The notes under the pieces were generated by a model. It worked only from the letters and a program-made list of their open reading frames with translations. It ran no database searches and had not been told where the DNA came from. The translations under genes were made by a program, and so were the position numbers. From contig CBCPMW010000008.1 of the NCBI GenBank assembly GCA_965120375.1, forward strand, positions 6,091 to 70,090: DNA of 64,000 bases, in the 5' to 3' direction. Below are positions 29,857-30,645 of this stretch, piece after piece. Source of the stretch: an uncultured Eubacteriales bacterium (GTDB lineage: Bacteria; Bacillota; Clostridia; Oscillospirales; Acutalibacteraceae). Each line of letters opens with the position of its first letter. Position 1 is the first letter of the stretch.

Positions 29857-30645
29857 ATGTCATTGTTGAGTGCGGTTACTAGCATTGCCAGTAGTGCTGT
29901 TAGTGGTTTGTTTAGTAGTGGGAATGATTATTATACCGAAACTGGGACAAATCAATATACAACGAAGAGGAGAACCAGTGTTCTATATGATTATAGTCCT
30001 GTTCAAAAAGCTGTTTTTTATGTTGCTACTAACAAAGGAACTGCTCTAAATCCCGATCTTGAAGTTGAAGATATTTTGTATGTTCAGGTTAACCCGTCTA
30101 ACTTGTCAGTTTCTGCTGACGGCGCTAGAAGAATTACAAGACCGACAAAACCAACTGAACGAGCGACCGAAAGCCCAGACAATGAAAAGGAATTTGGGCT
30201 TGAAGATTTTACTGTAAATTTAAAATTCGATCTTTATGACGAGTTTTCAGTTGCGACTAACGACGGGATGTCAACCGGGATGTTTGGATCAAATGACAAG
30301 GATTTAAGCAGCAGAAAGGCAACAAGTATGCAGTGCTTCATTGATTTAGTCAGAACTCGCGACAAGTATGTTTATTTTAAATGGGGACCGTTTGAGAGGT
30401 TCGGAGTTATGGTTAAAGCGGAGTTTACTTATACAGCGTTTTCTTGTTTTGGTCATCCGCTGAAGGCTGAAGGGAGTGTCACTATCAGAGAGACTTGGTG
30501 GACGATCGACAGTTCTGGTGTTGTGAACCGTTATCCGGACGTACAAGACGGATCTGGCTCACTCTTCTCAAAGGCGAGCTCGAACGACACAATTGATAGT
30601 GCCGGTACAACAGCTGAACTTGCACTCAGAGAGCTTTTAAGCTAG
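29857..30645 (+). CDS. orphan protein resembling the tube-fold N-terminal domain of contractile-injection-system / phage baseplate tube-initiator proteins
   Basis: 263 aa counted from ATG 29857. The ORF-track start 29764 lies upstream of the promoter. Ordered motifs are ILYVQVNPSNLSVS; FTVNLKFDLYDEF; and YVYFKWGPFERFGVMVKAEFTYTAFSCFGHPLKAEGSVTIRE. These match my recollection of the CIS tube-domain family. The N-terminus is small and hydrophobic (MSLLSAVTSIASSAVSGLF). Confidence 0.5.
   Translation: MSLLSAVTSIASSAVSGLFSSGNDYYTETGTNQYTTKRRTSVLYDYSPVQKAVFYVATNKGTALNPDLEVEDILYVQVNPSNLSVSADGARRITRPTKPTERATESPDNEKEFGLEDFTVNLKFDLYDEFSVATNDGMSTGMFGSNDKDLSSRKATSMQCFIDLVRTRDKYVYFKWGPFERFGVMVKAEFTYTAFSCFGHPLKAEGSVTIRETWWTIDSSGVVNRYPDVQDGSGSLFSKASSNDTIDSAGTTAELALRELLS

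Follow-up and report, generated by a model that had tools for sequence, protein, structure and literature searches.

To our knowledge, proteins with the tail-tube fold are known almost only from phage tails, tailocins, extracellular contractile injection systems (eCISs) and type VI secretion systems (T6SSs). In one eCIS, Pvc7 forms the first tube layer on the spike, and its C-terminal LysM-like domain binds both Pvc12, a wedge protein, and Pvc4, the sheath initiator (PMC12546770). Here we describe a LysM-less relative of such tube initiators, encoded in a 64-kb stretch of DNA from an uncultured Eubacteriales bacterium (contig CBCPMW010000008.1; the whole stretch is referred to as the window). 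The gene and its downstream neighbor, which encodes a large, acidic and fast-evolving protein, are predicted from their sequences to form a two-gene chromosomal operon in Clostridia-type Firmicutes. We read the first protein, with slightly better than even confidence, as an exapted tube-initiator module of the Cis7, Pvc7, Afp7 and gp48 class that was recruited from a tail context and gained a new acidic partner. The baseplate-anchoring LysM-like domain has been lost and N- and C-terminal elements specific to the family have been gained.

The gene had been singled out in an earlier reading of the stretch (the original prediction), and its features are as follows:

29857..30645, forward strand (+): tube-initiator-like (CIS_tube) gene, product of 262 aa; based on Pfam, an AlphaFold2 (AF2) model, Foldseek, profile-to-PDB searches and family conservation.
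30076..30495, +: Pfam CIS_tube profile segment (aa 74–213), with the motifs Q-x-N-P, FKWG and Y-x-A-F-S-x-x-G-x-P-L-K-A.
29841..29847, +: ribosome-binding site (RBS) AAAGGGG of the tube-initiator-like gene, read from the sequence; AAAGGAG-type sites occupy the same place in homologous loci.

The open reading frame (ORF) and the three sequence blocks quoted from it in the original prediction were all found in the translation. A longer mechanical ORF of 293 aa spans 29764–30645 (+). The ATG at 29857 is nevertheless the right start, with a product of 262/263 aa, because a 12/12 sigma-A promoter (29771–29799) lies inside the extension and the RBS AAAGGGG stands 9 nt before this ATG, which supports the start and the product of ~263 aa that had been proposed. 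The protein consists of a variable N-terminal stretch (aa 1–37), a family motif (RRTSVLYDYSPVQKAVFYV, aa 38–56), a tube-fold core (aa 53–225) and a C-terminal helix (aa 234–261) that carries a conserved ALR, followed in the window protein by ELLS. The extra N-terminal stretch had been put at about 50 aa and needs correction, as only 37 aa precede the family motif, and this length varies from 2 to 46 aa across relatives.

Membership of the tube-initiator homology class was established by three independent methods, namely Pfam, profile-to-PDB searches and AF2 modeling followed by Foldseek. The single Pfam match, over residues 74–213, was to PF19266, CIS_tube, the family that the original prediction had named; its score of 34.4 bits (E = 2.3e-8) lies above the curated gathering threshold, which is 27. 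When a profile of 80 family sequences was compared with PDB sequences, only tube initiators were matched. The best was 9rce_H (1.9e-10), the Cis7 protein of the Salmonella salamae eCIS (9rce), and the others were Alg7 (7aeb_M), Streptomyces Cis7 (9gtp_P), Anabaena All3321 (7b5h_AK), Pvc7, Afp7 and the “tube initiator” of cyanophage A-1(L) (8kea_P). An AF2 model made from the 80-sequence family alignment reached a pLDDT of 80.5 and a pTM of 0.77 (a 7-sequence alignment gave a pLDDT of only 46 and was set aside). Foldseek searches of the PDB with this model retrieved the same initiator chains as the profile search. Cis7-class chains were at the top (7b5h_AK, 7aeb_M, 9qgl_7A, 9gtp_M, 6j0n_b and 6rao_G; probability 1.00, E 7e-7 to 2e-5, TM-score 0.33–0.45), myophage initiators and baseplate chains of phiCD508 and diffocin formed the next tier, and true tube and Hcp proteins ranked much lower. 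Structural matches in BFVD were to phage proteins labeled “CIS tube protein N-terminal domain”, LysM and “baseplate tail tube cap”. As the original prediction had noted, the LysM domain is missing. Pfam gave no LysM match in the window protein even at E ≤ 1, and LysM was present in 0/80 family members, whereas a canonical control protein from another locus (L064; such labels denote individual loci) does show LysM. At the C-terminus, the AF2 model has a single helix where canonical initiators have the LysM-like domain.

The protein is one of a discrete family. In an exhaustive HMMER search of 1.84 billion representatives, only 239 proteins passed E ≤ 1e-3, and 92 passed E ≤ 1e-10; among the matches listed, down to about E = 1e-10, nearly all were 200–300 aa long and aligned over most of their length. 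CIS_tube was matched by all 80 aligned members (E ≤ 0.01) and was their sole match, except that one member also had a weak match to Phage_P2_GpU. Members are 20–45% identical to the window protein, with a mean column identity of 23%, and yet the canonical core motifs Q-x-N-P, F-K-W-G and Y-x-A-F-S-x-x-G-x-P-L-K-A are invariant, and Q77, N79, P80, G199 and P201 are fixed in 80/80 members. Two features belong to the family itself: the nearly invariant motif (Y/R)-R-T-S-V-L-(N/Y)-D-F-S-x-V-x-K-A before the first beta-strand, and the C-terminal helix, which ends the protein with ...A-L-R in 76 of the 80 relatives. A scan of metagenome contigs with a degenerate DNA pattern for F-x-W-G...G-x-P-L yielded 54 loci, and their scores against the family hidden Markov model (HMM) split cleanly into 10 at ≥128 bits (the family) and 44 at ≤80 bits (distant CIS_tube proteins, three of whose loci served as canonical controls for gene order). 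On PF19266, the window protein scores 34 bits versus 92–120 bits for canonical proteins. Neither a tblastn search of 50,697 phage genomes nor a motif search of IMG/VR found any family member, and plasmids gave a single weak match, to a Rhodococcus “phage tail protein”. The domain family is already known and PF19266 already captures these proteins. In the literature that we found, however, there was no description of stand-alone CIS_tube proteins, the LysM-less clade, its partner or its promoter.

For comparison between lineages, we used 18 diverged loci (the window and 17 further lineages) whose family proteins are 22–74% identical to each other. A feature shared by these loci is the promoter of the family gene, which in the window is:

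29771..29799, +: perfect sigma-A (sigma-70-type) promoter, TTGACA-17 nt-TATAAT (12/12), its -35 hexamer starting 86 nt upstream of the ATG.

This is the only exact TTGACA-N17-TATAAT in the window, where 0.04 would be expected by chance, and the ribosomal-protein and chaperone operons in the window have no exact consensus promoter. A perfect match lies 75–110 nt upstream of the start codon in 16/18 lineages (for example L001 4494–4522, L004 4249–4277, L007 3933–3961, L009 9923–9951, L028 9133–9161 and L070 8620–8648), and the remaining two are near-perfect (TTGACA-17-TACTAT and TTGACA-17-GATAAT). For lineages that are only ~25–40% identical to one another, this is among the best-conserved consensus promoters known to us. 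Across all 73 loci there were 25 exact matches, of which 21 are the family-gene promoter; a 22nd lies on the opposite strand in L006, partly overlapping, and the remaining three are at other genes. The spacer and 5' untranslated sequences are not conserved between clades, and no Rfam element was found at the promoter or leader. That the consensus has been conserved in this way argues for very strong, sigma-A-dependent, vegetative transcription, as far as can be predicted from sequence. Sporulation-specific expression of the pair appears unlikely from this promoter type.

The second gene follows on the same strand:

30690..30696, +: RBS AAGGAGG of the partner gene.
30705..33680, +: partner gene, 991 aa, GTG start.
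32438..32670, +: tandem repeat in the partner gene, 48-nt unit, 4.9 copies (Tandem Repeats Finder).

The two genes are separated by a 59-nt gap in which no terminator is predicted. Asp and Glu make up 21% of the 991-aa partner, and no transmembrane segment (hydropathy scan) or N-terminal hydrophobic signal-type segment (by inspection) was found in it. Searches of Pfam, NCBIfam and PADLOC yielded nothing for it, and PHROGs only one non-significant match (E = 0.06); profiles of the partners had no match among PDB sequences. Its layout is a Cys- and Trp-containing N-domain kept in the clade (aa ~40–480), a basic linker, acidic repeats and a C-terminal region. Orthologues in L001, L004, L006 and L007 are 25–29% identical to it over ~350–500 aa (E 1e-22 to 2e-48), and the conserved elements of the N-terminal ~480 aa in this clade include several Cys and Trp residues and the motifs YDPEEDKG, HLGVRELG and LNADAxELAKACIVLL. 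After the basic linker, the clade's partners carry 2–8 copies of (D/E)-R-(D/E/N)-hydrophobic-hydrophobic-(F/A). In the window, the 48-nt repeat encodes SPERDLLADEI(I/V)DEV(D/E/N) and is flanked by more degenerate ERDLL copies; analogous repeats, in 2–5 copies each, are present in the partners of L001, L004, L006 and L007.

A check of whether the two genes co-occur in other genomes, suggested in the original prediction, showed that the pair is kept in the window's clade and that a large acidic gene is found in the equivalent position in 16/18 diverged loci. This same-strand gene (355–1169 aa) is immediately downstream, starting 7–60 nt on, except in L011, which has a 254-nt gap with a 56-aa ORF between. 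The partners contain 13–29% Asp+Glu, mostly 15–22%. Like the window's partner, they lack transmembrane segments in a hydropathy scan and Pfam, NCBIfam or PADLOC matches, and the N-termini inspected had no hydrophobic segment of signal type. No similarity between partners of different clades was detected by BLAST or HMM. We considered the partner as a tape measure protein (TMP) and rejected this, as it is downstream rather than upstream of the initiator and has no BLAST similarity to six control TMP-like proteins; in composition, four of these six are Ala/Arg/Pro-rich, in contrast to the acidic partners.

Some variants of the partner region were also observed. In L011, the first 28 residues of the 1169-aa partner (10978–14487) recur at 86% identity in the 56-aa ORF (10738–10908), which may reflect duplication of the gene start or an artefact of assembly; upstream in L011 is a divergently encoded, 1531-aa coiled-coil-like protein without a known family. 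The L062 partner ORF (1821–2888) matches that of L028 at 96% identity over 72 residues and then continues in frame with other sequence, which by eye only resembles CbiD-like cobalamin biosynthesis proteins; the ORF is a variant with a deletion or else the product of a chimeric assembly. Within L045, 2930–5049 (−) holds an unannotated 687-aa gene two genes away from the family gene, with its own exact TTGACA-N17-TATAAT (5021–5049) and an AAAGGAG site. This might be a relocated partner, and BLAST shows no similarity between it and other partners.

As tail and CIS machines are the only other known settings of the domain, the pair could be a component, or a displaced paralogue, of a CIS or prophage tail encoded elsewhere in the genome, and our gene surveys reach the window and flanks rather than whole genomes. 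The genes surrounding the pair speak otherwise. The Pfam survey of the window used the annotations of 99.7%-identical ENA contigs, which cover 1–17124 and 19764–61845, and the gap was scanned separately. The gene order begins with MiaB, YlbF, MutS, MutL, MiaA, SepF, DivIVA, IleRS, LspA, RluD and polyphosphate kinase, and continues with enolase, PGM, an LRR protein, PrsW, two ABC exporters, the pair, KdpA/B/C, transketolase and cytidine deaminase; these are followed by a G5/3D protein, L19, signal peptidase, RNase HII, trigger factor, ClpP, ClpX and Lon, and finally by LysA, RNase Y, L21/Prp/L27 and Obg. No sheath, tube, spike, gp25, Baseplate_J or CIS-type ATPase gene is present in the window, and its only AAA+ genes are ClpX and Lon. 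As the original prediction had stated, the ~30 kb on either side contain no tail or CIS genes; the window genes with a Pfam match are all housekeeping. Four window ORFs are without a Pfam match: the partner gene, 949–2430 (−, 493 aa), 19684–20379 (−, 231 aa) and 24918–25568 (+, 216 aa), the last of which has no NCBIfam match either and is kept beside PrsW in L001.

In the 17 further lineages, no tail genes were seen near the family gene in the flank available (≤10 kb, and much less on short contigs). By annotation, no tail families occurred in L001–L013 or L070–L073, and further loci were syntenic by ORF map. Tail clusters would have been recognized, because the canonical control loci showed them in the same scan, in the order TMP-like, CIS_tube(+LysM), Phage_GPD, GPW_gp25, Baseplate_J, Tail_P2_I. 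Commonly, PrmC-like, histidine kinase (HK), response regulator (RR) and lipoprotein genes are on one strand, and the family gene is divergent from them and followed by the partner and then FeoAB. The sporulation genes SpoIID, YtfJ, YqfD and YabP are near the family locus in many lineages. We regard a tail or CIS elsewhere in the genome as improbable: all 18 loci are free of tail genes in the available flank of up to 10–30 kb, the LysM-like domain for contact with wedge and sheath initiator is missing in 80/80 members, and the family forms a group of its own, distant from canonical proteins on PF19266. In particular, that the gene is merely a displaced paralogue is unlikely, given that it comes with a conserved promoter and a partner of its own and that the family is clearly set apart from canonical CIS_tube proteins.

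In syntenic lineages, no other part of the conserved neighborhood evolves as fast as the pair. Amino acid identity was 84–100% for the RR, 58–97% for the HK, 62–74% for FeoB, 42–86% for PrmC and 23–82% for the lipoprotein, as compared with 34–59% for the family protein and 21–34% (noise level) for the partner. Between L028 and L062, the family gene has a nonsynonymous divergence (dN) of 0.165 and a synonymous divergence (dS) of 0.71, versus 0.005 and 0.09 for the adjacent lipoprotein gene; between L028 and L038, its dS is 1.18 versus 0.34–0.60 for neighbors. Among these three loci, family-gene dS is thus 2–8 times that of flanking genes. This synonymous excess suggests allelic replacement by recombination at the locus, while a dN/dS of 0.23–0.28 indicates purifying selection overall. 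Within-species hypervariability of the pair was considered and rejected, as the density of single-nucleotide polymorphisms (SNPs) is ordinary in the window's species.

The composition of the locus was also analyzed. GC at third codon positions (GC3) is raised in the window's clade (0.36 versus a background of 0.24 ± 0.05) and near background in most other clades. Recent horizontal transfer was discarded as the explanation for the raised GC, as it holds for the window's clade only, with most loci at background. The raised GC and GC3, together with the phage origin of the fold, would fit a decaying remnant of a prophage or tailocin of which two genes are left. That explanation is close to refuted. 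ORFs are intact in at least 92 clusters, and the motifs have remained invariant in spite of 20–45% identity to the window protein; dN/dS is that of a gene under constraint; the consensus promoter and RBSs are conserved; no flanking phage scars, integrase or tRNA gene was seen; and no phage homologue was found.

In the main rival explanation, the protein is a decoy against phages or tailocin producers. An abundant LysM-less initiator mimic would compete with the initiators of incoming myophages for the hub, tape measure or tube subunits and so poison tail assembly, with the partner assisting or sensing. A protein that keeps the tube-polymerization face and has lost the baseplate-docking domain has the architecture expected of a dominant negative, the consensus promoter would supply the excess needed for competition, and fast evolution with elevated dS is expected of arms-race loci exchanged by recombination. 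However, the pair had no match to any of 5027 PADLOC models (PADLOC-DB v2, E ≤ 0.1, searched with the tube-like protein and four partner proteins) and is outside defence islands and mobile elements. It also keeps an orthologous position beside a WalRK-like operon, feoAB or kdp down to 34% identity, unlike patchy defence genes, and its ordinary SNP density and purifying rather than positive selection overall do not favor an arms race. Taking both sides together, we consider the decoy unlikely, although it has clearly more in its favor than a tail encoded elsewhere.

We favor exaptation, and the following mechanism is proposed for it. The retained beta-hairpin/barrel core may self-assemble into hexameric rings or short ring stacks, as tube-family proteins do, and in the absence of LysM these would be unable to attach to the wedge or sheath proteins. 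Instead, the elements gained at the termini might bind the partner with which the protein is co-expressed, might mediate contacts between rings or with a membrane, or might do both. With a consensus promoter and strong RBSs, the product would be abundant and vegetative, which suits a structural or stoichiometric role and not catalysis. More tentatively, and with rather less than even confidence, we hypothesize that the pair is an undescribed non-viral, non-CIS system of Clostridia, in which an abundant initiator ring and a hyper-acidic, diversifying partner build an intracellular or envelope structure, or interfere in a fixed manner with phage tail assembly.

Several points weigh against exaptation with a new partner. 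We infer both ring formation and partner binding, and the absence of tail genes holds for the window and flanks, not the rest of each genome. As there is no sequence similarity between clades, “same partner” means position, size and composition only, and L045 and L033 have no co-directional partner but a convergent ankyrin-repeat gene instead. Fast evolution and elevated dS fit conflict-type genes better than a housekeeping scaffold, and a lateral origin of the copy in the window's clade is possible given its raised GC3. Membrane targeting by the N-terminus is a weak proposition: an amphipathic helix, which we tried and rejected as a family feature, is variable and not universal, and its hydrophobic moment (0.48) is barely above that of the control (0.42).

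Other observations concern the surroundings of the pair. An OmpR-type RR and an HK are beside it in L009 (7141–9821, −), L070 (5771–8490, −), L028, L032, L038, L059 and L004 (225–4018, +), accompanied by a small lipoprotein gene or, in L004, by an HtrA protease gene instead. YycF and WalK were the best or near-best NCBIfam models for these neighbors, with scores far below the curated cutoffs, and the neighborhood may be a clostridial WalRK-like envelope operon. The kdpB ORF of the window (35557–36600, +), between kdpA and kdpC, encodes 347 aa with an E1-E2_ATPase domain only (411 aa in L001). KdpB is normally ~680 aa, and the window kdpB may be truncated or split. When compared with the 99.7%-identical same-species contigs, the gene for a DUF348/G5/3D cell-wall protein (39605–40852, −) had 24 SNPs per kb and the Obg gene (58613–59890, +) had 17, against a window average of ~2.4, and these two genes look like local hot spots of recombination or diversification. 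Class-A RNase P RNA, Prp-L27, SepF/DivIVA, a SpoVT gene next to the window and the sporulation genes of related loci suggest that the bacterium, with a GC content of 31%, is a Clostridia-class Firmicute. Other features of the window include:

488–838, −: class-A bacterial RNase P RNA, 256 bits.
17465–19594, +: polyphosphate kinase, four-domain, in the gap between the annotated contigs.
61969–62061, +: tRNA-Ser(GGA).

This is a seemingly clean case of a single tail part, the initiator, surviving alone as a discrete and vertically held family. If confirmed, it would illustrate one way in which hosts domesticate structural modules of phages for functions of their own and would point to an abundant, uncharacterized protein pair in gut-type Clostridia. 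If the protein were instead a decoy, it would represent a new defence principle, with a piece of the phage's own machinery, still able to assemble, as its basis. Given the conserved promoter, whether the pair is highly abundant could be checked directly in metatranscriptomes and metaproteomes that already exist.

Among known systems, the eCIS initiators Cis7, Pvc7, Afp7 and Alg7 (PF19266 plus a LysM-like domain; 9qgl, 6j0n, 6rao, 7aeb, 9gtp, 7b5h and 9rce) are the best matches by both sequence profile and structure. They share with the window protein a similar size (~220–260 aa) and the N-terminal tube-fold motifs Q/F-x-N-P, (F)-x-W-G and Y-x-x-F-x-x-x-G-x-P-L/R-x-A. Unlike them, the window protein has a helix ending in A-L-R in place of the LysM-like domain and an extra conserved N-terminal motif, and its gene has its own consensus promoter and is not beside spike, gp25, Baseplate_J or sheath genes. 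At canonical loci the initiator gene is followed by that of a Phage_GPD hub, whereas here an acidic protein without a known family follows. The myophage initiators and tube caps (T4 gp48/gp54, P2 gpU of PF06995, A-1(L) 8kea, phiCD508 and diffocin) are of the same fold class (Foldseek E 7e-5 to 2e-3), and the weak Phage_P2_GpU match of one family member is to the gpU family. They are more distant than the eCIS proteins. No close homologue was found in the phage genomes or IMG/VR, and there is no virion module around the gene. Tail tube and Hcp proteins (gp19 of PF06841, T6SS Hcp and lambda gpV) have the general tube beta-sandwich fold in common with the window protein (Foldseek E 0.04 for gpV and 0.24 for Hcp) and no match at the sequence level; the window protein is larger than these and carries the motifs of an initiator.

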